Shown piece by piece: positions 561-38,726 of a stretch of 64,000 nucleotides of DNA (the first letter of the stretch is position 1; each line of letters opens with the position of its first letter). Source of the DNA: an uncultured Candidatus Peribacteria bacterium (GTDB lineage: Bacteria > Patescibacteriota > Gracilibacteria > RBG-16-42-10); the NCBI GenBank assembly GCA_964514565.1, contig CAZERA010000004.1, positions 40,793 through 104,792 of the forward strand. Reading direction: 5' to 3'. The position numbers and the translations under genes were made by a program. The notes under the pieces were generated by a model. It had not been told where the DNA came from. It ran no database searches and was given only the letters and a program-made list of their open reading frames with translations.

Positions 561-1796
561 TTACTGGGTGAAGATTTGAGTGACATACATTTCATCTGGA
601 CTTTCACCAACGATAATCCCGATCCCTACATGAGTATAGGGTATGTAGGTTCCTAGAATATTGAAAGCATGTGAGTAGAGATAGTTGCCATCGTCCCCTT
701 TTTCAAACATTTTATTGATAATGTCAGTGACGCGGTCTTCTGGAGTAGCATTGTCAAAGAAAGCATGAGCAATGTTTTGAGTAGCTTCACTGTAGCTAAT
801 GTCATATTTCTTACTTGCTAATGCAAACCATTGATCAAAAGTCTGACCATTGACGTTGCGGTGGGAGGTCCATGGTCGGCGTTTTTCTTGTTCGGTGAGG
901 TTAGCATGGCTAGTCTCGTATTCTTTCTTTTGTTGTTTATCCAAGAAATGCCATTGGTCATAAAGCTCTTGGCTTTGGTTTCTAGCAATACCAGAAAGTT
1001 TTTGATCAATTACCAGAGGAGCTTTTTTTTCAGTGGCCCGTTTCTCATTGATAGCAATTAGCATGCTTCTCTCTAGGTCAGTGATAGCAGGAAAAGTGGT
1101 GTCTTTGTCTTGGAGATAGTTGTCTAAAATCTTCACTGCCTCAGCGCGAGTGATTGGTGTATTGGGTAAAAATAAACCGTTGCTAGTCCCTTTGATATAG
1201 CCCAAAGCACGAGCGGAATAAATATAAGGGGCTAATTCATGGTTGGGAGACACATCGAGAAATGCCTCGCCAATATTATAGTCTTTGATCTCATTGTTGC
1301 TTGCAACAATAAAGATTTTCAAAAACTCGGCTCTACTGACTGACTTGGTAGGACGAAAAGTACGGTCACTATAACCTTTGACCATTTTTTTCTCGTAAGC
1401 ATACTTAATGAAAGGCAACAAAGTATCACTACTATCTACATCACCAAAAGGTACTGTCACTGATCCGCTTTGGGTGACAGGGCGATAGTTGCTGGTAGCC
1501 AAGGTGATTATTTTGGTTGTTTCTGCTCGAGTAAGTGGACGGTCTGGTCCAAAACTACCATCACTATAGCCATTGACGATTTTTTTCTTTACCACATTTT
1601 GAATAGCATCATAGGCCCAATATTGCTCATTGATGTCTCGGAAGATCACCTCCGGAGCACTAGTCACCGTACTAGTTGGTGTAGGGCTTGGTGTGCTGGT
1701 TGTTACACTAGTTGGTGTGGGTGTAGCCGTAGTAGCAGCCATTGCTGTGAATGGTGTAAACAACAGCAAGCTAATCAGAAGAAAGCGACGTAGCAT
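561..1796 (-). CDS. Secreted S-layer homology (SLH x3) protein with C-terminal CAP/SCP-like domain
   Basis: Signal peptide, T/P-rich linker, three SLH repeats (GYSDGSFGPDRPLTRAE, GYSDRTFRPTKSVSRAE, GTSNGLFLPNTPITRAE); CAP-like INEKR...PLVIDQKLSGIAR...NIA...HAFNILG..YTHVGIG. Confidence 0.85.
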   Translation of the reverse strand: MLRRFLLISLLLFTPFTAMAATTATPTPTSVTTSTPSPTPTSTVTSAPEVIFRDINEQYWAYDAIQNVVKKKIVNGYSDGSFGPDRPLTRAETTKIITLATSNYRPVTQSGSVTVPFGDVDSSDTLLPFIKYAYEKKMVKGYSDRTFRPTKSVSRAEFLKIFIVASNNEIKDYNIGEAFLDVSPNHELAPYIYSARALGYIKGTSNGLFLPNTPITRAEAVKILDNYLQDKDTTFPAITDLERSMLIAINEKRATEKKAPLVIDQKLSGIARNQSQELYDQWHFLDKQQKKEYETSHANLTEQEKRRPWTSHRNVNGQTFDQWFALASKKYDISYSEATQNIAHAFFDNATPEDRVTDIINKMFEKGDDGNYLYSHAFNILGTYIPYTHVGIGIIVGESPDEMYVTQIFTQ

Positions 1797-1976
1797 AATA
1801 AATGGACAAATTAAAAGATGATTTACTTAATCAAGTACGGTCAAGCTACATATTAGTTACTCTTACTTTGATCTGCAATCTCCTTGCTTAATTGGCCAAA
1901 CTTTGGCATTAATATACAGTGTATATCGCTATTACTAATAATAGCGTCTTCTCCTCTATTCTTTACTCCATACATT

Positions 1977-3326
1977 GTGGCTAAGAAAAAGCTTTTTTTC
2001 AGTCTACCTCGGGGCATGAGAGACATTTTACCTGCAGATCACAGTGTGGCTTCATATTTGAAAAAGATTATTCGGTATCGATGCCGTCAGGCTGGTATTC
2101 GGCGTATTAGTACACCAATATTTGAACGTACTGTGATTCTTGATAATCTTCCACCAGCACACTGGGGAGAAATAGTTCAGCTACAATATAAAAATGGTGA
2201 ACAAAATAATTTGCTTCTACGCAAAAACTTTTTGTTAAGCATTCTGCGTACATATATCACACACAAGATGTATGAAGGTCCTCAACCTGTTGAGCTATAT
2301 TCACTTGATATGTGCTTCCGCTCAGTTAAAAATTGGGGCGATAGTGATCAACCAGTGTTGCAACAGTTTTTAGGTTTTGATTTGCAAGTATTGGGTGAAA
2401 ATGATCCTGTTTTGGATGCTCAAGTTATTAAACTTTGGTATACAATTTGTACTGATATTGGTTTAGAACAATTTATTTCTATTCGTTTGGCTAAAATCGG
2501 TACAGTTGCTTCTCGTGAGCAGTTTTTAGTAGATTTTGCGCATTATTATAGTGGCAAAGAGAGATCGCTCTGTCCTAATTGTGCCAAGGCTTTGGCTACT
2601 GATCCCCTCCAACTGCTTACTTGTCAGGAAGAAGACTGTCAGATTTTGTTGAAGTTAGCTCCCAAGTTGGAAACCTATTTGGATGCTGAGACCAAGGTGT
2701 TTTATCAAAACCTTGAAGAGTATCTACATATTTTGAAAGTGCCATTCGTCTGGCAAGAGTATTTGTATCCTGAAGATATGAATATCTATGAGCCGCTCTA
2801 TGGTGAGATTTTCTTAGATGATAAAAAACTGGGTACTATTCATCATTTCTCAGAGCTTTTGACTGATGAGAGTTTCCCTGGGGTCTCTGGTCGTTCACTT
2901 TTTGTCAATTTGGAAGAAGTGATCATGTCTATGCAGAAACATGATGTGTTTGTGCCTTACAAAGATAATATCCATGTATATATAGCTCAGCTCGGTGTAG
3001 ATGCCAAGAAATACGGCTTAGAATTGCTTTATAGTCTTCGTCAAAAAGGCATCAAGGCTATTGCCAGTATGGGCAAAGGTAGTATGCAAGAACAAGTGGA
3101 TACTGCTTATAAATTCCGCATTCCTTATGCACTTCTAGTGGGACGGATGGAAGTGAATGAGAATATTGTGATTGTGCGTGATATGACTACTGGTAAGCGG
3201 GAGACTGTGCCCAGAGATGAGATTGCTACCTTCTTGCTCAACAAAATCCCAGAATGTGAATTGGATCAAGTAAGCTACGACAAGATGACTCGTAGTCACT
3301 ATGAGGCTAAGCAAAAAGAAATTTAA
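1977..3326 (+). CDS. Histidyl-tRNA synthetase-like protein, catalytic motifs degenerate, anticodon-binding domain retained
   Basis: LPRGMRDILP, ISTPIFE, LCPNC..DPLQLLTC...DC insertion, C-terminal HGTP-type anticodon domain. Probable GTG start at 1977 (ORF track opens at 1884). Confidence 0.85.
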   Translation: MAKKKLFFSLPRGMRDILPADHSVASYLKKIIRYRCRQAGIRRISTPIFERTVILDNLPPAHWGEIVQLQYKNGEQNNLLLRKNFLLSILRTYITHKMYEGPQPVELYSLDMCFRSVKNWGDSDQPVLQQFLGFDLQVLGENDPVLDAQVIKLWYTICTDIGLEQFISIRLAKIGTVASREQFLVDFAHYYSGKERSLCPNCAKALATDPLQLLTCQEEDCQILLKLAPKLETYLDAETKVFYQNLEEYLHILKVPFVWQEYLYPEDMNIYEPLYGEIFLDDKKLGTIHHFSELLTDESFPGVSGRSLFVNLEEVIMSMQKHDVFVPYKDNIHVYIAQLGVDAKKYGLELLYSLRQKGIKAIASMGKGSMQEQVDTAYKFRIPYALLVGRMEVNENIVIVRDMTTGKRETVPRDEIATFLLNKIPECELDQVSYDKMTRSHYEAKQKEI

Positions 3327-3553
3327 GGTTTTATTGGTTTTAGTAAGCTACTAATAGTAGGAATAGGTGTGGGTAAAGTATCTCTGATTAAGCGAAAAGG
3401 ATCACAGGACTGATGACTGAGGTTTTCTGTCCTACCGATCCAAAAGCTGGTGATACTAAAGATGAGACTGATCAGTAGAGCCAAGCCGTGGTAAAAGTAA
3501 TATTTTCTTTTTTTAGCAAGTTGTGACATTGGTTGTGATTGAGTAGACAGCAT
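3323..3553 (-). CDS. Small single-pass membrane hypothetical protein
   Basis: Basic KKRK patch followed by one hydrophobic helix; fills the gap between two + strand genes. Confidence 0.5.
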   Translation of the reverse strand: MLSTQSQPMSQLAKKRKYYFYHGLALLISLIFSITSFWIGRTENLSHQSCDPFRLIRDTLPTPIPTISSLLKPIKP

Positions 3554-3603: not shown

Positions 3604-4719
3604 ATGTATCTTTTCTATCTAGGTAATAATTTGGAGCTTTCTCGTTGGGAATTGCGTAATCTCCTACCAGTGACGCCTGCGGGAGAATCAACCTACGGTA
3701 TTTCTTATGCTGATGAAGCTGTTCAACCATTTGATCTACCGACAATTCAAAAGCGAGCTGGTGGTTTGCGTGAAATTATTCACCATACTGACCAGTCTTT
3801 TGCAGAGTGGGAAAAAGCAATTATGAGTTTGCGTGATGAGTGGATTGGTGGCGAAAAAGAAATCACTTTGCAAGCGCCAAGTTGTGATGAGAAGCAACGT
3901 GAACATATGCTACTAGCCTTGAAGCGATATTGGCATGAACGTACTGGTAAATCTTTGCGTTTCCGACTCAATAAAACCTATTTGGTAGGTAATGGTGGCA
4001 ATGTATTGTGGTGGTTACCTGTTCCAGATCAAGCTGGTCAATTTTGGTTGGGCCATAGCATTACCCAACAAACTATTAGTGCCTATGCCCAGAGAGATTA
4101 TGATAAGCCAGCTCGCTCGATGCAGCGAGGAATGCTACCTCCCAAACTCGCTCAGATTATGATCAATGGTGCTGGCATTGGATCTGACCAAGTCCTATGG
4201 GATCCATTTTGTGGTACTGGTACTGTGTTGGTAGAGGCTGCTCTGATGAACATTCCCTCGATCGGTAGTGACAATGAAACTGCCGCCATTCGAGAGACTC
4301 AGAACAATATCGCTAGTGTATTGGATTTTGATCACCAAAAGTTTATTCAACAGTTGTGGCAACAAAATATTATGCAGACCTGGCATCTGCCCTGTGATGA
4401 TGAGAATCTAGTAATTGTGGCTGAAGGCTACCTTGGTCCTATTCAAAATAAAGCGATGACCGTGGGGGACGGATTGCGTGCTTTTTGGCAAAAAGTAGAA
4501 CCACTCTACCAAAAGTTTTTTACTGAGCTAGCTAGGAGTAAAATTAAAAAGATGGTTTTGGCTACACCAATTGTTTTAATGGCTGAAAATAATTCACGTT
4601 TGGCTAAAAGAAGCTGGGATATTCTGCTCAAACAAGGCTGGGAAATAAGCTTTAGTGCTGATTATACTCGTTCGAATCAATTTATTGGTCGGCATATCGC
4701 TTGCTTGCAAAGAAACTAA
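3604..4719 (+). CDS. SAM-dependent RNA methyltransferase (Trm11/UPF0020-like)
   Basis: RDYDKPARSMQRGMLPPKLAQIMIN, WDPFCGTGTVLVEA, IGSD, EGYLGP. Confidence 0.85.
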   Translation: MYLFYLGNNLELSRWELRNLLPVTPAGESTYGISYADEAVQPFDLPTIQKRAGGLREIIHHTDQSFAEWEKAIMSLRDEWIGGEKEITLQAPSCDEKQREHMLLALKRYWHERTGKSLRFRLNKTYLVGNGGNVLWWLPVPDQAGQFWLGHSITQQTISAYAQRDYDKPARSMQRGMLPPKLAQIMINGAGIGSDQVLWDPFCGTGTVLVEAALMNIPSIGSDNETAAIRETQNNIASVLDFDHQKFIQQLWQQNIMQTWHLPCDDENLVIVAEGYLGPIQNKAMTVGDGLRAFWQKVEPLYQKFFTELARSKIKKMVLATPIVLMAENNSRLAKRSWDILLKQGWEISFSADYTRSNQFIGRHIACLQRN

Positions 4720-11187: not shown

Positions 11188-12277
11188 TTAGTCTTTATTA
11201 CGCAGATACCCCTCGATAAAAGGAAGGATCTCACCATCGAGTACTTTATTGACATCAGTCATCTCTACATTGGTTCGATGATCTTTAACCATAGTATAGG
11301 GATGCATGACATATGAGCGGATCTGATGTCCCCAGCTATTTTGATGTGAACCTTTGAGTTCTTTTAGCTCTAATTGTTTTTCAGCTAATTGAATAGCCAT
11401 CAATCGGTTCCGCAAGGTCTTCATCGCCAAGTCTTTATTCTGTAGCTGTGACCGTTCATTTTGACATTGCACCACTATACCTGATGGTATGTGAGTGATA
11501 CGGACAGCTGAGTCTGTGGTATTTACACCTTGTCCGCCATGTCCGCCAGCTCTGAAGACGTCTATCCTCAGATCATCAGGATTGATTTCAATACCGCTAG
11601 TGTCATCTAATACTGGAATTACTTCTAATAGCGCAAAGGATGTCTCGCGCGAGTGTTTGGCATTGTATGGTGAGATACGTACTAGTCTATGCACTCCGGA
11701 CTCCCCTTTGAGCATGCCGTAGGCATAGTCCCCTTTTACTTCGATAGTTACAGTCTTGATGCCAGCTTCTTCTGCTGGTGATAGGTCTAGTAGTTGGATT
11801 TTGAAATGATTGTTTTCGGCAAAACGGGAATACATTCTAAACAAAATATTGGCCCAGTCCTGGGCATCCACTCCTCCTGTGCCAGCGTGAATTGTGAGCA
11901 AGGCATTGTTGAGATCATAACGGCCGCTAAGCAGAGTCATCGTTTCGAACTGCAGAAAGTCTTGAACCAAGGCTGGTACTTGTTGGTGTAGTTCTTTGGC
12001 TAATTCGGGGTCGGTTTCGGTGGAAGTGATTTCTACTAATTGTTGTAGTTCAGTAAACTTCTCAGTCAAGCTTTCAATTGTGCTGATCAGTTTCTCTAGA
12101 TGATGAATCTTTTGGGTTGTGCTACGTGCAGCATTGGGATCAGACCAGAAAGTCTCTTTCTCGGTGGTCTGTACTAGCTCTGCATGTTGTTTTTGTAAGG
12201 TTGGGACGTCAAAGATATTCTCTCAGACGAGAGATCTTAGTGGATAGGTCGGTGAGTTGTTGTTTTAATTCGTGCAT
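11188..12277 (-). CDS. prfB: Peptide chain release factor 2, expressed by programmed +1 frameshift (22 codons + 340 codons)
   Basis: ATG at 12277 opens MHELKQQLTDLSTKISRLREYL then CTT TGA C; +1 shift to GAC at 12210 is in frame with the 11188-12069 ORF carrying GESGVHRLVRISPY, GGHGGQGVN, WGHQIRSY. Confidence 0.96.
12208..12223 (-). other. prfB programmed +1 frameshift site
   Basis: Minus strand AGAGAA TAT CTT TGA C; canonical CTTTGAC at 12214-12208. Confidence 0.93.
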
Positions 12278-28901: not shown

Positions 28902-30176
28902 ATGGATATTTTTTCTCCTTTATTAACTTCGCTGGGATTATCAATTGGTATTGGTGTCCTAGTGGGGATTGAGCGCGAATCTTATCGTCAGCAGGGGGCT
29001 AATACCATTGCTGGTTTACGCACATTCATTTTTATCAGTGTTTGGGGATTCTTGACTGGTGTGATTGCACAAACATGGTTAATGGCATTTTTGCCTATTT
29101 CCTTTTTTTGTTTAGTAATGACACTTATTTCAGTATATTACAGTCGTGTAAGTCAAGGTGAAAAGCATGGTTTAACCACTGAGATGGCTGCAATTGTTAC
29201 TTTTCTTCTAGCAGCATTATCTCTACAATTAGATCATAGCATTATCTTAGCATTAGGAGTATTAGTGGCGTTGGCACTGTCTACTAAAAATATTTTCACT
29301 CACTGGTTGACTGTTTTCCCTCGGGAAGCAGTACTTGCTACTGTACAGTTTGCTGTACTTAGTGCTGTGGTTCTACCTTTCTTGCCGAATCAGTATATGG
29401 GACCTTGGCATTTTTTTAATCCTTATGTTGCTTGGTGGATGGTAGTTTTAGTATCTGGTATTAGTTTTGTCGGATATGTTCTCAACTTATTGTTTACTAG
29501 TCGCAAGAGTATATTAGTTAGTTCTGCAATCGGTGGTTTAGTTTCTTCTACTGCAGTGACTACATCGATGTCACAATTATCAAAGCATGCTACTGGTTCG
29601 GTTAGTTTGTTTGTAACTGGCTGTATAGTGGCTAGTTCGATTGCATCTTTACGGGTATTAGCTACAGCCTCTATCATATACACGCCAATCTTTTTTGTGC
29701 TCTTTTTACCGATGTTTTTGCTGACTATTATCGGTGGCATATTTATTGGGCGGATTTATAGTAAGCCGGTGATCACAGAAGAAAAAGTAAGTTTGGATAA
29801 TCCATTTCAAATTGGATCAGCAATTACTTTTGCTGTTTTATTTGTCATAATTTCTTTTTTAGCTCGTACTAGTACTGGTTTTTTTGGTATTCAAGGCTTA
29901 TATGTGACTAGTCTTTTTGCTGGTGTTGCTGATGTAGATGCAATGACTATTTCTGCTAGCCAGTTAGCTAATTTAGGAACGATTAGTGCAAACCAAGCTA
30001 GTATCACGGTTCTTCTGGTATTTCTCAGCAATATGGTAGTCAAGTGTGTGATCACTTTGGTTTTTGGTCATCGTAATATGCGCAAATTGATCTTAAGTTA
30101 CACAGCAATTGTTTTGATCATCATTCTTTTAGCTGTCTTGTTTTTGCACTGGAGTAATTTTAATGTTCAATTCTAG
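28902..30176 (+). CDS. MgtC/SapB-family membrane protein with DUF4010-like region
   Basis: GIERE, AGLRTF, GLTTE, GGLVSSTAVT, GVADVDA. Confidence 0.88.
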   Translation: MDIFSPLLTSLGLSIGIGVLVGIERESYRQQGANTIAGLRTFIFISVWGFLTGVIAQTWLMAFLPISFFCLVMTLISVYYSRVSQGEKHGLTTEMAAIVTFLLAALSLQLDHSIILALGVLVALALSTKNIFTHWLTVFPREAVLATVQFAVLSAVVLPFLPNQYMGPWHFFNPYVAWWMVVLVSGISFVGYVLNLLFTSRKSILVSSAIGGLVSSTAVTTSMSQLSKHATGSVSLFVTGCIVASSIASLRVLATASIIYTPIFFVLFLPMFLLTIIGGIFIGRIYSKPVITEEKVSLDNPFQIGSAITFAVLFVIISFLARTSTGFFGIQGLYVTSLFAGVADVDAMTISASQLANLGTISANQASITVLLVFLSNMVVKCVITLVFGHRNMRKLILSYTAIVLIIILLAVLFLHWSNFNVQF

Positions 30177-33100
30177 TTTATCAATAGTTACTTTTTCTTC
30201 ACGGTCAGCTAGCATGTTTGGTGTACTGATGCTGTCAGCAAGGGTTTCACGGGCGATATATGATCCACAAGTAGTAAGTACTTTGTGAGCAAGCTCGGTC
30301 TCACTCAGAACTTCGATATTGATGACAATGCGGCCATCTACTTGGTAGCTGGCAGCTTTGCGCATTTCTTGAATGTGTCTGACGATCTCTCGCGCATACC
30401 CCTCAGCAATCAGTTCTTCGCTAAGATTAGTATCCAAGGCTACTACGATATTACCTTCACTGAGCACACTCATGCCTGGTTCTGTCTTGTATACCACTTC
30501 AAATTCCTCAGGACTCAATGTGAATTTATCTGCGACAGTTACTGAACCATTGTCTTCAAATACAATATTTTGATCCCGCGCTGCTTGCATAATAGTTTGT
30601 ACATCATTGCCAAACTTTGGCCCAACAATTGCTGCGCGAGGTTTGATCCCTTTTTGAATAGTAGCTTGATCAGGGCTAGTCATAAACACATTTTTGACAT
30701 TGAGTTCTTCAGCAATTACTTGTAGTTCTTCGGCTTGGAGACGCATAGGAGCAATTACGGTCGCTGATGGTAGTGGTTGCCGAGTTTTTAACTTTTGATT
30801 GGCGCGAATAGCGTGACCTAGATTGACTATATTACGCATGAATGCCATCTCTTCATTGAGAGCTGGACGGACAAAACTAGTAATGCTGCGGGGGAAGCTA
30901 GCCATGTGCACAGATTTTTTGCCTACTAAGTTTCGATACATATGTTCACTGACAAAAGGGACAAAAGGAGCGATTACTTTTACTAGTGTTGTAAGGACAT
31001 GATAAAGTGTTTGATAGGCGCTGTTTTTGTCTTGATCATTTTCAGCTTTCCAGAAACGACGGCGAGATCTACGCACGTACCAGTTGGAGAGATTATCTAC
31101 AAATTGCTCGATCTTATTGGTGGCCTCCCAAATTTGGTAACCATCAAGTTGTTGTTCCACTTCTGCCACCATAGTGTGCAGCTCTGATAGAATCCAGCGA
31201 TCCAGTTTGTGTTCGCTCCATGGCATCACATAGCGATCAATGCTTCCGAGAGCGAATTTGCTTGTAAGTACTTGGTCTGATGGTGTGTGGTTGAAGTATT
31301 TATCGATCATTTTTTTGACCATGCCATTGGCAATGATCATCACTGTTTCACCTGCACATTTTTCTTTTACTTCATCTAGGAAAGAGAAGACACGTTCTTC
31401 CAGATCCAGGTATGATTCCCCTTCTGGAAATTTCTGAGAATACTGGTTGGTAAGACTGTTCAAATAGCTTTCTACATCAGCTGCTAGCTTGCCATCAAAG
31501 GTACCAAGATTGAGCTCTCTCAGTCGATCATCTTCACTGATTGTTACTTGATGAAATTGGGCAATAATGTCTGCTACCTCACGAGTGCGGGTAATTGGTG
31601 CTGCAAAGATCTTGTCGATCTTACTGTGTTTAAATTCTTGGCCAATAGCTTCAGCATCGCGATGTCCTTTTTCTGTGAGGTGATAGGTCTGGTCTTTGTC
31701 ACTTGCCACTACTCCCAGTGGGACGTTTTCTGATTCGGTGTGTTGGACACTGATTACTTTGGTAAATTTCTGTGGCTGAAATTGATCAATATTGGCGTAA
31801 GTGACAAAGAATGAATAGACATTCCATAGTGTCAGCAAAAACTTACGCAAAGATTGTTCTACTAGATTGACTGAGAAATTACGTGGTTGGCTAGGAGGTG
31901 AAGCGTGGAACATATACCAACGAAGTGCATCAGCTCCATGCTTTTCAGTCACCTCCATTGGCTCGACAATATTGCCTAGTGATTTACTCATTTTTAGTCC
32001 TTTCTCGTCCAAGATATGACCTAAACAAATGACGTTTTTATAGGGAGTTTTGTCCCAAATAGCGGTACTGACTGCGAGGAGTGTATAGAACCAGCCACGA
32101 GTTTGATCAATTGCTTCGCAAATATAATCAGCTGGGAAGTAGTTGTCATTGAAATCTTGGTCCTTGATATCAAATGGGTAGTGAACTTGAGCAATTGGCA
32201 TAGCTCCAGAATCAAACCAACAATCAATCACTTCCTCTACACGATGACTGACTCCACCACATTCACAAGGAATGGTGACAGCATCGATGTATGGCCTGTG
32301 GAGATCTCTTTCGCCTTTGTCATTGATTGGGAGATCTTGGCCACTTTTCTTTTGCAACTCGATCATCGATCCCACACACAAGGTTTTGTGACAAGAGTTG
32401 CATTCCCAGACTGGTAATGGTGTACCCCAATAACGATTGCGGGATAATGCCCAATCTTTGATTTCACTCAGCCAGTTGCCAAAGCGCCCTTCTTTGATGT
32501 GTTCAGGATGCCAGTTGATTGCTTGATTGTTTTTGATCAGTTCATCTCTCAGCTGAGACATTCGAATAAACCAAGACGTAATTGCAAAGTAAATCAGTGG
32601 TGTCTTACAACGCCAACAGTGTGGATAATTGTGTTCGTATTTTTCTTTCTTGAGCAACATATTTCTACTAGCAAGATCCTTGAGAATTTCTACATCTAGG
32701 CCTTCTTCTTTGAAATAGCGGCCACTATAGACGCCACTACCATCAATAAATTTACCTTCTTTGTTGACGTGCTGCAGTCTTGGTAAGTCATATTTTTGAA
32801 TCACCTGATAATCCTCCTCACCATAGAGAGCAATATGAACAATGCCAGTACCATCTGTAGTAGTGACAAATGGTTCAGCTACTACGTACCAGCCTTTTTT
32901 CTCGCTAGGATAATAATTCCAGGGCGCTTCATAACCTGTACCCACCAAATCTGATCCCTGGTAGGTGTTTTCTACTGTATACTGAGGTTTTCCTTCAGCA
33001 TCTTTGGGCAATACATCGCTATAAGCAGCCAAACGATCAGTGGCAATAATAATTGCTGTATTTTGGTCGATCCTGATCTGGCTATATTCAATTTCTGCTC

Positions 33101-33872
33101 CTACACAAAGAGCGAGATTTCCCAGTAATGTCCAAGGAGTAGTAGTCCAAGCAGCTAAATAAACTGTCTCACTATCCTTGCTAAATTTCGCTTGGTCGGT
33201 AATTTTAAACAAAGCAGTGAGGGACATATCTTTGACGGTCTGATATTCCTGCGCTACTTCGTGACTAGAGAGCGGTGTACCACAACGACAACAATACGGT
33301 ACTATTTTGAGATCACGGTACAACAATCCTTTTTCCCAGATTTGTTTGAGACACCACCAGACTGACTCGATATAGTCTGGTGAATAAGTGACATAAGGAT
33401 TTTTCATATCTACCCAATAACCAATTCGCTCGGTCATTTCCTCGAAAGCATGTGTGAATTTGTGTACTGAATCTTTACACTTATTATTGAAGGCCTCGAT
33501 GCCGTATTCTTCAATTTGTTTTTTACCAGAAATACCCAGTTCTTTTTCTACTTGTAACTCAACTGGTAGACCATGCGTATCCCAACCTGCTTTGCGTTCA
33601 ATATAAAAACCTTGCATTGTTTTGTAGCGCAAGATGACATCTTTGAAAACGCGTGCTAGTACGTGATGTACACCTGGTTTGCCATTGGCAGTGGGAGGAC
33701 CCTCGTAGAATACAAAGTGTTTGCCATCTTCACGCAAAGTTTGTACTTTTTGAAAAATATTTTCTTGTTGCCAGAAAGCGAGGATGTCTTTTTCTAGTTC
33801 AGGAAATGACTGTTTGACTTGTACAGGAATAAAGGTAGTACTGGCTGGATCTTGTTTCTCGGGGGTATCCAT
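30129..33872 (-). CDS. ileS: Isoleucyl-tRNA synthetase (type 2) with an inserted histidine-phosphatase-like domain
   Basis: YEGPPTANGKPGVHH, GWDTHGLPVE, AWTTTPWTL, DGTGIVH, DWALSRNRYWGTP, DQTRGWFY, KMSKS, NWYVRRSRRRFW. Confidence 0.97.
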   Translation of the reverse strand: MDTPEKQDPASTTFIPVQVKQSFPELEKDILAFWQQENIFQKVQTLREDGKHFVFYEGPPTANGKPGVHHVLARVFKDVILRYKTMQGFYIERKAGWDTHGLPVELQVEKELGISGKKQIEEYGIEAFNNKCKDSVHKFTHAFEEMTERIGYWVDMKNPYVTYSPDYIESVWWCLKQIWEKGLLYRDLKIVPYCCRCGTPLSSHEVAQEYQTVKDMSLTALFKITDQAKFSKDSETVYLAAWTTTPWTLLGNLALCVGAEIEYSQIRIDQNTAIIIATDRLAAYSDVLPKDAEGKPQYTVENTYQGSDLVGTGYEAPWNYYPSEKKGWYVVAEPFVTTTDGTGIVHIALYGEEDYQVIQKYDLPRLQHVNKEGKFIDGSGVYSGRYFKEEGLDVEILKDLASRNMLLKKEKYEHNYPHCWRCKTPLIYFAITSWFIRMSQLRDELIKNNQAINWHPEHIKEGRFGNWLSEIKDWALSRNRYWGTPLPVWECNSCHKTLCVGSMIELQKKSGQDLPINDKGERDLHRPYIDAVTIPCECGGVSHRVEEVIDCWFDSGAMPIAQVHYPFDIKDQDFNDNYFPADYICEAIDQTRGWFYTLLAVSTAIWDKTPYKNVICLGHILDEKGLKMSKSLGNIVEPMEVTEKHGADALRWYMFHASPPSQPRNFSVNLVEQSLRKFLLTLWNVYSFFVTYANIDQFQPQKFTKVISVQHTESENVPLGVVASDKDQTYHLTEKGHRDAEAIGQEFKHSKIDKIFAAPITRTREVADIIAQFHQVTISEDDRLRELNLGTFDGKLAADVESYLNSLTNQYSQKFPEGESYLDLEERVFSFLDEVKEKCAGETVMIIANGMVKKMIDKYFNHTPSDQVLTSKFALGSIDRYVMPWSEHKLDRWILSELHTMVAEVEQQLDGYQIWEATNKIEQFVDNLSNWYVRRSRRRFWKAENDQDKNSAYQTLYHVLTTLVKVIAPFVPFVSEHMYRNLVGKKSVHMASFPRSITSFVRPALNEEMAFMRNIVNLGHAIRANQKLKTRQPLPSATVIAPMRLQAEELQVIAEELNVKNVFMTSPDQATIQKGIKPRAAIVGPKFGNDVQTIMQAARDQNIVFEDNGSVTVADKFTLSPEEFEVVYKTEPGMSVLSEGNIVVALDTNLSEELIAEGYAREIVRHIQEMRKAASYQVDGRIVINIEVLSETELAHKVLTTCGSYIARETLADSISTPNMLADREEKVTIDKLELNIKITPVQKQDS

Positions 33873-36950: not shown

Positions 36951-38726
36951 ATGCTTACAGCTAAAGAAATTCGTGCCAAATATCTTGCTTTCTTTCAAAA
37001 GAATGGCCATGCCATTATTCCTAGTGCCTCTCTAGTACCCGAGAATGATCCAAGTGTTTTGTTTACCACCGCCGGCATGCATCCGTTAGTTCCTTATTTG
37101 ATGGGTGAAAAGCATCCTCAAGGTACTCGACTAGTGGATGTGCAAAAGTGTGTGCGCACCGATGATATTGATGAGGTTGGTGATAATACTCACTGTACTT
37201 TTTTTGAGATGTTGGGCAACTGGTCACTGGGTGACTATTTCAAAGAAGAATCGATTGGGTTTAGTTTTAGATTTTTGGTTGAAGAGCTACAAATTCCTTT
37301 GGATCGTTTGGCGGTGACTTGTTTTGCTGGTGATGAGACTGCTCCCAAGGATACTGTTTCATATGAACAGTGGCTGAAGCTGGGCGTACCAGAATCACGT
37401 ATTGCTTTCTTGGGTAAGAAAGACAACTGGTGGCCGAGTGGTGGTAAGCATCCGGGGCCTCAGGGACCAGATACTGAGATTTTTTATTGGACAGGCAAAG
37501 AGTCTGCTCCAGTTGCTTTCGATCCTCAGAACAATCTTTGGGTGGAGATTTGGAACAATGTGTTTATGGAATTCAATCGTACGACTGATGGAGCATATCA
37601 ACCATTGAAGCAAAAGAATGTGGATACTGGTATGGGGCTAGAGCGTACAGCCGCAGTGCTTCAGGGCAAGGCTACTATTTATGAGACAGATTTGTTTATT
37701 CCATTGATTGAAAAAATTCGTTCGCTCGCTACCGAGCAAAACACTGCTTCAGAGCGTATTATTGCTGATCATATCCGTGCTGCCATGTTTTTATTGGTAG
37801 ATCATGTACGTCCTAGCAATGTCGACCAAGGCTATATTTTGCGTCGTCTCATTCGCCGCGCTGTCCGTCACGGTCGCAAGATTGGCATCAAAGGGAACTT
37901 CTTGGAGCCGCTTGGTGCTTTGGTATTAGCTCAATACCAAGATGCTTATCCAGAGATGATGAAGCAACCAATTGTTTTGTTGCAAGCACTCCAAGATGAG
38001 GAGAACCAGTTCAACAAAACTTTAGAAAATGGTTTGAAACAATTTAGGAAATTGGAGGTACAGCTGACTGAACAAGACAGTAAGCAGATTTCTGGGGATC
38101 AAGCTTTTCATCTCTATGATACCTTTGGTTTTCCGATTGAGATTACCAAGGAATTAGCGACTGAGATTGGACTGTCTGTCGATGAACAGGGTTTTGCTGA
38201 TGCTTTCAAGAAACATCAAGATCTTTCTCGTCAGGGTAGTGAACAAAAATTTGCTGGTGGTTTAGCTGATCATTCAGCTGAGAGCCGCATGCTTCATACT
38301 GCTACTCACTTATTGCATCAGGCTTTACGTACAGTATTGGGAGCACATGTAGAACAACGTGGTAGCAACATCACTAGTGAGCGTTTACGTTTTGATTTTC
38401 CACATGAGAGACCGATGACTCCTGAAGAAAAGGCGCAAGTAGAAGTGATTGTGAATGAACAAATTAAGCGTGATTTGCCGGTGAGTTGGAGAGAGATGAC
38501 TGTGGATGAAGCAAAACAAGATGGCGCGATTGGTATCTTTGAAGATCGTTATGGTGACAAAGTCAAAGTCTATACTATGGGTGACTTTTCTAAAGAGATT
38601 TGTGGTGGGCCTCATGTAGAACACACTGGTGAATTGAAAGGATTCAAGATCATCAAAGAAGAGAGTTCTAGTAAAGGTATCCGTCGCATCAAAGCGGTAA
38701 TCGGTAATTCTGCACTCAGTAGCTAG
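36951..38726 (+). CDS. alaS: Alanyl-tRNA synthetase (short form lacking C-Ala)
   Basis: LFTTAGM, QKCVR, HCTFFEMLGNWS, EIWNNVFM, DTGMGLER, HTATHLL, CGGPHV, GIRRIKA. Confidence 0.97.
   Translation: MLTAKEIRAKYLAFFQKNGHAIIPSASLVPENDPSVLFTTAGMHPLVPYLMGEKHPQGTRLVDVQKCVRTDDIDEVGDNTHCTFFEMLGNWSLGDYFKEESIGFSFRFLVEELQIPLDRLAVTCFAGDETAPKDTVSYEQWLKLGVPESRIAFLGKKDNWWPSGGKHPGPQGPDTEIFYWTGKESAPVAFDPQNNLWVEIWNNVFMEFNRTTDGAYQPLKQKNVDTGMGLERTAAVLQGKATIYETDLFIPLIEKIRSLATEQNTASERIIADHIRAAMFLLVDHVRPSNVDQGYILRRLIRRAVRHGRKIGIKGNFLEPLGALVLAQYQDAYPEMMKQPIVLLQALQDEENQFNKTLENGLKQFRKLEVQLTEQDSKQISGDQAFHLYDTFGFPIEITKELATEIGLSVDEQGFADAFKKHQDLSRQGSEQKFAGGLADHSAESRMLHTATHLLHQALRTVLGAHVEQRGSNITSERLRFDFPHERPMTPEEKAQVEVIVNEQIKRDLPVSWREMTVDEAKQDGAIGIFEDRYGDKVKVYTMGDFSKEICGGPHVEHTGELKGFKIIKEESSSKGIRRIKAVIGNSALSS

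Follow-up and report, generated by a model that had tools for sequence, protein, structure and literature searches.

The 64,000-nucleotide stretch analysed here (the window), from contig CAZERA010000004.1 of an uncultured Candidatus Peribacteria bacterium, carries on its forward strand a gene (1977..3326) for a full-length relative of histidyl-tRNA synthetase (HisRS) from which the residues binding ATP, histidine and the acceptor end of tRNA have been lost while the complete HisRS fold has been kept. This gene, here called the pseudo-HisRS gene, has become fixed in one Abawacabacteria-like lineage of order level within the Peregrinibacteria/Gracilibacteria group, which belongs to the bacteria known as the Candidate Phyla Radiation (CPR), and it is held there by purifying selection that matches in strength the selection on housekeeping genes nearby. 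In the explanation favoured here, for and against which about equally much can be said, the product is a catalytically dead descendant of bacterial type-1 HisRS, namely a homodimeric pseudo-synthetase whose anticodon-binding domain would bind the anticodon arm of tRNA-His or a mimic of it, while a HisRS of another type (type 2) would do the charging elsewhere in the genome. By type 1 is meant the HisRS of Peregrinibacteria, Gracilibacteria and Patescibacteria that has a Cys-bearing insertion and is nearest to the HisRS of Staphylococcus aureus.

The open reading frame (ORF) at 1977..3326 starts with GTG, has no internal stop codon and encodes a protein of 449 amino acids (P0001). Two alternative starts were present, a TTG at 1884, which would give a longer protein, and an inner ATG at 2016, which was chosen by some database models; the start at 1977 was favoured because the residues N-terminal of the inner ATG (KK..F[FY]S.PRGMRD) are conserved in relatives. 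The NCBIfam hisS profile TIGR00442 was matched over profile positions 2-405 of 406 with 159.3 bits, the cut-off of 286.75 not being reached. From Pfam, HGTP_anticodon was found with an E-value of 1.1e-12 and tRNA-synt_His with 19.2 bits, under its cut-off of 25. The best solved relative by sequence was S. aureus HisRS 1qe0 (E 4.8e-43), with residues 9-419 of P0001 aligned onto residues 3-417 without large gaps, and the HisRS enzymes of Peregrinibacteria/Gracilibacteria were 33-40% identical to P0001. The profile of HisZ (TIGR00443), the regulatory subunit of ATP phosphoribosyltransferase, gave 38.8 bits over residues 15-177 only, with a cut-off of 271.65. P0001 is a stand-alone protein, and no fused or longer relatives of 787-2245 amino acids were obtained at E <= 0.001, which is weak evidence. 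The gene and the parts of its product to which the comparisons below refer are the following.

1977..3326 (forward strand), pseudo-HisRS gene, 449 amino acids, GTG start, assigned from profiles, the sequence match to solved HisRS and the fold search

2016..2129 (forward strand), N-terminal segment, residues 14-51 (MRDILP ... RRISTPIFE), canonical-like and the core of the modelled dimer interface

2313..2396 (forward strand), remnant of class II motif 2, residues 113-140, about 5 residues longer than in canonical relatives

2502..2762 (forward strand), insertion domain, residues 176-262, with the fold and many conserved columns kept and the acceptor clamp replaced (A205, Q212, Q217)

2571..2639 (forward strand), four-Cys cluster and candidate metal site, C199-x2-C202 ... 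C216-x4-C221, common to canonical type-1 relatives

2763..2942 (forward strand), remnants of the HisA loop, GGRYD and motif 3, residues 263-322, the most eroded part

2973..3242 (forward strand), anticodon-binding domain, residues 333-422, the best-kept part, placed by a Pfam match and conserved columns

An earlier note, made from the letters of the window, had described a HisRS paralog with nearly every catalytic motif eroded, and each of its motif readings was reproduced when P0001 was aligned with canonical relatives. RPEGT has become RKNFL, motif 2 reads FRSVKNWGDSDQPVLQQFLGFDLQ, RGLDYY of HisA is replaced by PEDMNIY and GGGRY by GTIHHF, and G.ER of motif 3 has become NLEE. The colinear and uninterrupted HisRS scaffold described in that note was likewise found, as seen from the profile coverage, the alignment with 1qe0 and the lack of internal stops, and so were the Cys-rich insertion (C199, C202, C216 and C221) and the anticodon-binding domain (22 of 28 conserved columns) that it had listed as kept. 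From a set of 17 catalytic positions P0001 retained 5, and 96 of 117 full-length matches retained 16-17.

For a comparison by position, 15 eroded rows (10 protein clusters and 5 genome loci, including near-duplicates such as P0006/L005) were set against 158 canonical rows (86 clusters and 72 loci, duplicates being possible); neither set includes fragments, outgroup rows, three long-branch rows or any row with partial erosion. The arginine of motif 3 was present in 158 of 158 canonical rows, and none of the 15 eroded rows has it, E, D or A standing in its place (E in P0001). The arginine of motif 2, also found in all 158 canonical rows, was retained in 8 of the 15 eroded rows, P0001 among them. 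The HisA arginine was gone from every eroded row, and in at least 90% of these rows the arginine of GGRYD was H. In the established class II mechanism the arginines of motifs 2 and 3, HisA and GGRYD are needed for adenylate formation. When those columns were counted which are at least 90% conserved in the canonical rows and retained in the eroded clade, the loss was found to be unevenly distributed: 23 of 47 were kept in the N-terminus and motif 1, 4 of 15 in motif 2, 9 of 14 in residues 141-175, 19 of 30 in the insertion domain, 4 of 36 from HisA to motif 3 and 22 of 28 in the anticodon domain.

The eroded parts have acquired a character of their own. The net charge of motif 2 changed from +2.9 in canonical relatives to -2.4 in the eroded proteins, and that of the stretch from HisA to motif 3 from -1.1 to -5.4. 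In the latter stretch the motifs PLYGEI, G.[IVL].H[FY] and S[LF]..N[LI][DE]..V are conserved within the clade. Altogether 24 sites were fixed in the eroded clade to a residue unlike the canonical one, many of them in the old pocket (W63, D135, Y275, H290, S307 and N311 being clade-fixed), and the former active-site part was conserved within the clade like the rest of the protein, with a mean top-residue frequency of 0.72. The contacts between Thermus thermophilus HisRS and tRNA were mapped onto P0001 via alignment to solved relatives; the acceptor-stem clamp of that enzyme consists of R197, R204 and K209 according to the available part of the source (PMC4357726). At the three clamp positions the residues R, R and K were found in 156, 158 and 156 of the 158 canonical rows, as against 0, 0 and 2 of the 15 eroded ones.

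What has been retained is the overall fold, the dimer interface, the cysteines and the anticodon-binding domain. An AlphaFold2 model of P0001 (33-row alignment) reached a mean predicted local distance difference test score (pLDDT) of 85.8 and a predicted template modelling score (pTM) of 0.73. When this model was searched with Foldseek, every listed match was a HisRS, with 1qe0_A at the top (E 5.2e-33, TM-score 0.84, normalised to target length) and the HisRS-tRNA complex 4rdx in third place. HisZ chains were found neither at E <= 0.01 in the sequence search nor among the listed top 50 fold matches. A HisRS-like homodimer of P0001 was modelled with confidence: the two-copy model scored 0.84 (runs 0.83-0.85) and the best of three controls 0.00, a result that may reflect likeness to solved HisRS dimers, and the runs agreed in at least 87% of contacts with a partner pLDDT of at least 85. 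Among proteins solved as pairs of one chain, 20 of 30 attained the mark applied to two-copy models; among those solved as single chains, 1 of 23 did. In the modelled dimer the interface is formed by residues 14-51, by motif 1 and by the other subunit's anticodon domain, that is, by segments common to active enzymes; D16, L18, P19, R43, I44, T46, P47 and E50 are invariant columns of the N-terminal segment. The four cysteines were present in 14-15 of the 15 eroded and 144-145 of the 158 canonical rows, and the cluster may bind a metal.

For the anticodon-binding domain, the available part of the same source (PMC4357726) gives E388, which contacts G34, and K397, which contacts G36, as the anticodon contacts of T. 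thermophilus HisRS whose mutation hurt most. The corresponding E392 and R401 of P0001 were present in all 15 eroded and all 158 canonical rows. At the U35 contact (Q404 in T. thermophilus) every one of the 158 canonical rows has Q, while R stands in 14 of the 15 eroded rows, the residue in P0001 being R408 (nucleotides 3198-3200). The net charge of the domain stays positive in the eroded clade (+3.6).

In order to place the gene among its relatives, genomes were scanned, one per species, with patterns derived from type-1 HisRS, and the best 80 of 331 relatives were examined. The closest genome loci carry the labels Peribacteria, Gracilibacteria and Abawacabacteria, and Abawacabacteria RBG_16_42_10 is a metagenome-assembled genome of a candidate phylum. 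The same replacement motifs as in P0001 occurred in 9 further protein clusters (54-94% identity) and in five genome loci (L001-L005), so that they are due neither to chance nor to sequencing error. The products of the five loci are 62-88% identical to P0001, and all the loci have an open frame with 5-7 of the 17 catalytic positions kept; with the window, the frame is open in 6 genomes. Besides the window's own genome, the gene is present in the assemblies CAZDKI01, CAZXKW01, JAGNZB01, CAZGLA01 and MEWR01. For the pair L001 and L002, the rates of nonsynonymous (dN) and synonymous (dS) substitution in the pseudo-HisRS gene were 0.027 and 0.911, giving a dN/dS of 0.030, and the dN/dS values of neighbouring genes were 0.010 for GreA, 0.031 for FtsH, 0.046 for MurJ and 0.047 for the methyltransferase gene directly downstream. 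Between the window and L001 the pseudo-HisRS proteins were 88% identical, as compared with 88% for RF2, 81% for MurJ and 73% for the methyltransferase. In the trees the stem of the eroded clade is long (1.28 and 1.83 changes per site) and its tips are short, which fits a burst of change followed by constraint. Selection of this kind resembles that on essential genes, and it acts in very small genomes, in which useless genes would not be expected to last.

According to the trees, the eroded clade nests inside type-1 HisRS. Sister to it are P0013 and P0021, a pair likewise eroded and annotated as 'HisS family protein', with a support of 97-98 in the Shimodaira-Hasegawa-like approximate likelihood ratio test (SH-aLRT). 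Among the best 80 of 331 loci, 72 were intact (16-17 of 17 positions) and 8 were eroded to varying degree, namely L001-L005, L009, L019 and L052. The last three carry partly eroded type-1 genes (L009 88-1473, 13 of 17; L019 9947-11284, 9 of 17; L052 2103-3500, 8 of 17) and formed a clade apart from that of the window in the tree built under a site-heterogeneous model. Among the best 80 of 331 relatives no genome was observed in which an intact type-1 gene accompanies an eroded one, and these 80 all belong to different assemblies; this absence of pairs is only suggestive. The term paralog used in the earlier note may be the wrong word, since the gene has the look of an eroded form of the lineage's own type-1 hisS.

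A second HisRS type was found in the same group of bacteria. At L013 (5032-7670, forward strand) an intact type-2 HisRS of 417 amino acids is followed after 50 bp by an intact type-1 HisRS of 444 amino acids in tandem. This type-2 enzyme is 27% identical to type 1 and 19% to P0001, and its closest solved relatives are the HisRS of Elizabethkingia (6nhi, E 1.7e-90) and those of human, Nostoc and archaea. It has numerous relatives, and those with names are histidine--tRNA ligases of Peregrinibacteria, Gracilibacteria and Patescibacteria (56-100% identity among the best 120 of 8000 scored candidates). Given the type-2 gene beside an intact type-1 gene in L013, and given these relatives, a type-2 enzyme encoded elsewhere probably does the charging in the carriers of the eroded gene. 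The arrangement of two HisRS types thus suggested for Peregrinibacteria-like bacteria is worth study in itself.

Gene order around the pseudo-HisRS gene was compared between the window and L001-L005. From GreA to RF2 the order of the window was found in all five loci as far as each contig reaches: GreA and a gene for a protein with SLH repeats and a CAP domain lie upstream on the opposite strand, and the pseudo-HisRS gene is followed on its own strand by the genes for the methyltransferase and L27; beyond these come the genes for MurJ, two membrane proteins, FtsH, TilS and RF2. The features nearest to the gene are these.

561..1796 (reverse strand), divergent upstream neighbour, encoding a secreted protein that has SLH repeats and a CAP domain

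1913..1942 (forward strand), weak sigma-70-like promoter match, a consensus match only

3604..4719 (forward strand), N2-guanine RNA methyltransferase, Trm11/Trm14-like (UPF0020), adjoining the pseudo-HisRS gene downstream in the window and all 5 loci

The methyltransferase is closest to archaeal Trm11 and Trm14 over the S-adenosylmethionine-binding catalytic core only (about residues 174-232), and no THUMP domain was detected in it. An SLH-domain gene was also seen near the canonical type-1 hisS in 63 of 75 loci (L006-L080), mostly directly downstream on the same strand, and the two form a conserved pair. The SLH-domain gene was rejected as evidence of positional orthology, because the orientation differs, only the SLH repeats match and the window holds three such genes. 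In the promoter and terminator scan the region had fewer matches than shuffled sequence. Rfam applied to the whole window gave two tRNAs only, without a riboswitch or leader near the pseudo-HisRS gene. The gap between the pseudo-HisRS and methyltransferase genes contains an antisense ORF (3323-3553, reverse strand) of 76 amino acids without a family match, which occurs only in the two closest relatives (51-54% identity) and is probably not a gene.

Under the favoured explanation of P0001 as a dead, dimeric descendant of type-1 HisRS, its anticodon-binding domain with the unchanged contacts to G34 and G36 would bind tRNA-His at its anticodon arm, or else an RNA element mimicking this arm. The protein would act as a non-catalytic RNA-binding factor, for example as a regulator, chaperone or sequestering protein, and would not sense whether the 3' end of the tRNA is charged or uncharged. 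Histidylation would be carried out by the different, type-2 HisRS, a redundancy that may have let the type-1 gene lose catalysis, and the change from Q to R at the U35 contact has possibly retargeted the RNA binding. Several observations weigh against this explanation. As the U35 contact has changed from Gln to Arg, the RNA target may no longer be tRNA-His, and no tRNA-His gene was found in the window or flanks. The protein is more acidic overall, with a mean isoelectric point of 6.0 in the eroded proteins and 7.25 in canonical relatives. Neither the window nor the 10-kb flanks of L001-L005 contained a type-2 HisRS, the genome scan with its patterns from type-1 HisRS could not have revealed one, and the finding that the five carrier genomes show no second type-1 copy is limited to the best 80 of 331 relatives. 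Because HisRS dimers have already been solved, the two-copy result demonstrates likeness and is no proof of binding. The dN/dS estimate rests on the one pair L001/L002, dS being above 1 or undefined for most others, and whether erosion had a single or repeated origin depends on the model, with one clade under LG+G4 and L019/L052 placed elsewhere in the site-heterogeneous tree.

The earlier note had proposed a regulatory, tRNA-binding or heterodimer role for a maintained pseudo-synthetase. That P0001 is a maintained pseudo-synthetase was supported by the loss of catalytic residues together with strong purifying selection and an intact fold, and as the anticodon-binding domain and the Cys cluster have been kept, a role in binding RNA or tRNA is reasonable. 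Sensing of uncharged tRNA in the manner of GCN2, also raised there, is less likely, because the contacts to the acceptor end are gone, with all three basic clamp residues lost, and the region of the former active site is acidic. Doubt falls as well on a heterodimer with a true HisRS, if the working enzyme is of type 2 and only 19% identical to P0001. The related idea of a regulatory or structural partner, which would tune the charging of tRNA-His in a heterodimer or higher complex with the working HisRS, draws on the residues of the dimer interface (14-51, motif 1), the part of the catalytic domain that is best shared with active enzymes; the low identity to type 2, the confidently modelled homodimer and the lack of an intact type-1 copy in carrier genomes among the best 80 of 331 relatives make it unlikely. 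An equally unlikely reading is that of a small-molecule sensor, in which a new ligand would be bound by the rebuilt active site and the signal relayed through the dimer or the anticodon domain. Here the 24 clade-fixed changed sites, many of them in the old pocket, and the conservation of the former active-site part within the clade (0.72, as in the remainder) are to be set against pocket glycines that have become larger residues (L280, S307, N311 and D135), which suggests a filled pocket, and neither a ligand nor a partner is indicated. That P0001 might be the tRNA-recognition subunit of the adjacent methyltransferase, as HisZ is for HisG, appears improbable. In the window, as in 5 of 5 loci, the methyltransferase gene does follow directly on the same strand, and only its catalytic UPF0020 domain was matched (residues 175-222), with no THUMP domain detected; however, the entire 12-kb region keeps its order and the adjacency is therefore not specific, the intergenic gaps measure 267-777 bp, and the methyltransferase evolves much faster (73% versus 88% identity between the window and L001).

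Three further readings have very little or next to nothing in their favour. The names given by NCBI to P0005 and P0009, 'ATP phosphoribosyltransferase regulatory subunit', together with the weak partial match to TIGR00443, would make the protein a HisZ. Its score of 38.8 bits is far under 271.65, the full anticodon-binding domain is present, HisRS reaches 4.8e-43 where no HisZ chain appears at E <0.01 or in the listed top 50 fold matches, the protein nests within the type-1 HisRS of its own group, and hisG was not found in the 64-kb window or in the flanks, which were compared for window genes only. The distinction from HisZ that had been suggested earlier was thus upheld by the phylogeny with type-1 HisRS and by the profile scores, and the HisZ identity, very improbable as it is, was rejected on all available tests (profile, sequence, fold and tree). 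It is just as improbable that P0001 is the only HisRS of the cell and charges tRNA-His through an unorthodox active site: no other hisS was found in the window or flanks and selection is as strong as on essential genes, but the arginines of motif 3 and HisA are lost in 15 of 15 rows, that of GGRYD is H in at least 90% and that of motif 2 is lost in 7 of 15 rows, and a second HisRS type exists in the group. For a pseudogene in neutral decay, the explanation with the least to recommend it, only the eroded catalytic motifs speak; the decay that the earlier note had set against its own reading was not borne out. It was ruled out by the open frames across the loci (6 genomes) and the dN/dS of 0.03 (0.030 for L001 against L002), and the replacement motifs are conserved down to 54% identity.

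The housekeeping genes in the remainder of the window are typical of CPR bacteria and include those for GreA, L27, MurJ, FtsH, TilS, UvrABC, IleRS, AlaRS, GlyRS and GyrB. The prfB gene for RF2 (11188-12276, reverse strand) has the classical site of programmed +1 frameshifting, CTT TGA C, following 22 codons, from which it follows that UGA is read as stop and that translation table 11 applies. Two other synthetase genes were noticed. The isoleucine--tRNA ligase (30129-33872, reverse strand, 1247 amino acids) carries Pfam His_Phos_1 (residues 730-883, 1.8e-26) between the catalytic core and the anticodon-binding domain as well as a C-terminal DUF5915, and this insert of the histidine phosphatase superfamily makes its architecture unusual. 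The alanine--tRNA ligase (36951-38726, forward strand) is of the short form of 591 amino acids (NCBIfam PRK01584), and the 847-position alaS profile was matched mainly at 1-432.

Erosion of HisRS was also looked for on a wider scale. A profile of the clade was run against 1.84 billion representative proteins, in which the clade itself corresponds to one representative at 50% identity (P0003, 852 bits), followed by P0013 with 398 bits and others with at most 349 bits. The first 58 of 150 listed representatives were examined, and after four of less than 400 amino acids had been dropped, 54 full-length proteins remained (P0242-P0299). Of these, 23 retained at most 12 of the 17 catalytic positions, although P0269 may be gapped and not truly eroded. 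When 22 eroded proteins (20 representatives, P0013 and P0084) were scanned with the profiles, all matched hisS over essentially the full length, 18 of them under the cut-off, and the HisZ profile gave at best 118.5 bits with its cut-off at 271.65. On a quick tree (LG+G4) the state changes between intact and eroded at least 7 times, and 12 eroded rows are united in one clade (SH-aLRT 98); trees of eroded proteins carry a risk of long-branch attraction. A bolder proposal, to which only a low probability is given, is that catalytically dead full-length HisRS proteins that no longer bind the acceptor end but keep the dimer and the anticodon-reading domain constitute a recurrent and undescribed class of bacterial RNA-binding pseudo-enzymes. 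In the lineage of the window such a protein would read a GNG-type anticodon loop, would perhaps have been retargeted by the Gln-to-Arg change from tRNA-His to another tRNA or an mRNA stem-loop, and would control translation or tRNA supply in cells with a second HisRS of unrelated type. If the recurrent erosion among metagenome representatives holds, RNA-binding factors of the pseudo-HisRS kind may form a wider class.

The nearest known relative of P0001 is HisRS of the S. aureus kind (1qe0), with which it shares length, domain order, fold, dimer interface, the Cys-bearing insertion domain and the class IIa anticodon-binding domain. It differs in having only 5 of 17 catalytic positions, in the loss of the clamp, in a lengthened and acidic motif 2 and in a hisS score under the cut-off. 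In other families the scaffold of a class II synthetase has likewise been kept as a dimeric factor associated with nucleic acids. POLG2, for example, is a class IIa-like accessory subunit. SLIMP, a SerRS-like protein of insects, is described as a pseudo-enzyme in the available part of a 2022 review (PMC9437257). Both belong to other families and other organisms and have no sequence link to P0001. The HisRS-like domain of GCN2 is given as derived from HisRS, non-charging, dimeric and tRNA-binding in the available parts of two papers (PMC4335047, PMC11363354). That domain is eukaryotic and fused to a kinase, whereas P0001 stands alone and has lost the features by which the acceptor end is read.

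Among bacterial proteins the comparison with HisZ is the closest. HisZ is the only HisRS-like paralogue given in the available part of the 2022 review (PMC9437257) and, in that of a 2016 survey (PMC5388404), a distant HisRS paralogue that motif-based methods miss. In the literature outside subscription journals no paper was found on HisRS paralogues in Patescibacteria or Peregrinibacteria or, among the results listed, on inactive HisRS-like paralogues of bacteria, and automatic names such as 'ATP phosphoribosyltransferase regulatory subunit' and 'HisS family protein', which have been attached to relatives of P0001, are misleading. HisZ and P0001 are alike in that both are derived from HisRS, are without aminoacylation chemistry and have been retained to serve a non-catalytic role. 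In HisZ a site for binding histidine is preserved. In contrast to HisZ, P0001 has its anticodon-binding domain, has no hisG nearby and arose separately and recently inside type-1 HisRS. P0001 is thus a pseudo-enzyme derived from an aminoacyl-tRNA synthetase that, unlike HisZ, has kept the anticodon domain, and it would represent a natural separation of the functions of HisRS, in which dimerisation and anticodon reading persist without the chemistry or the binding of the acceptor end.

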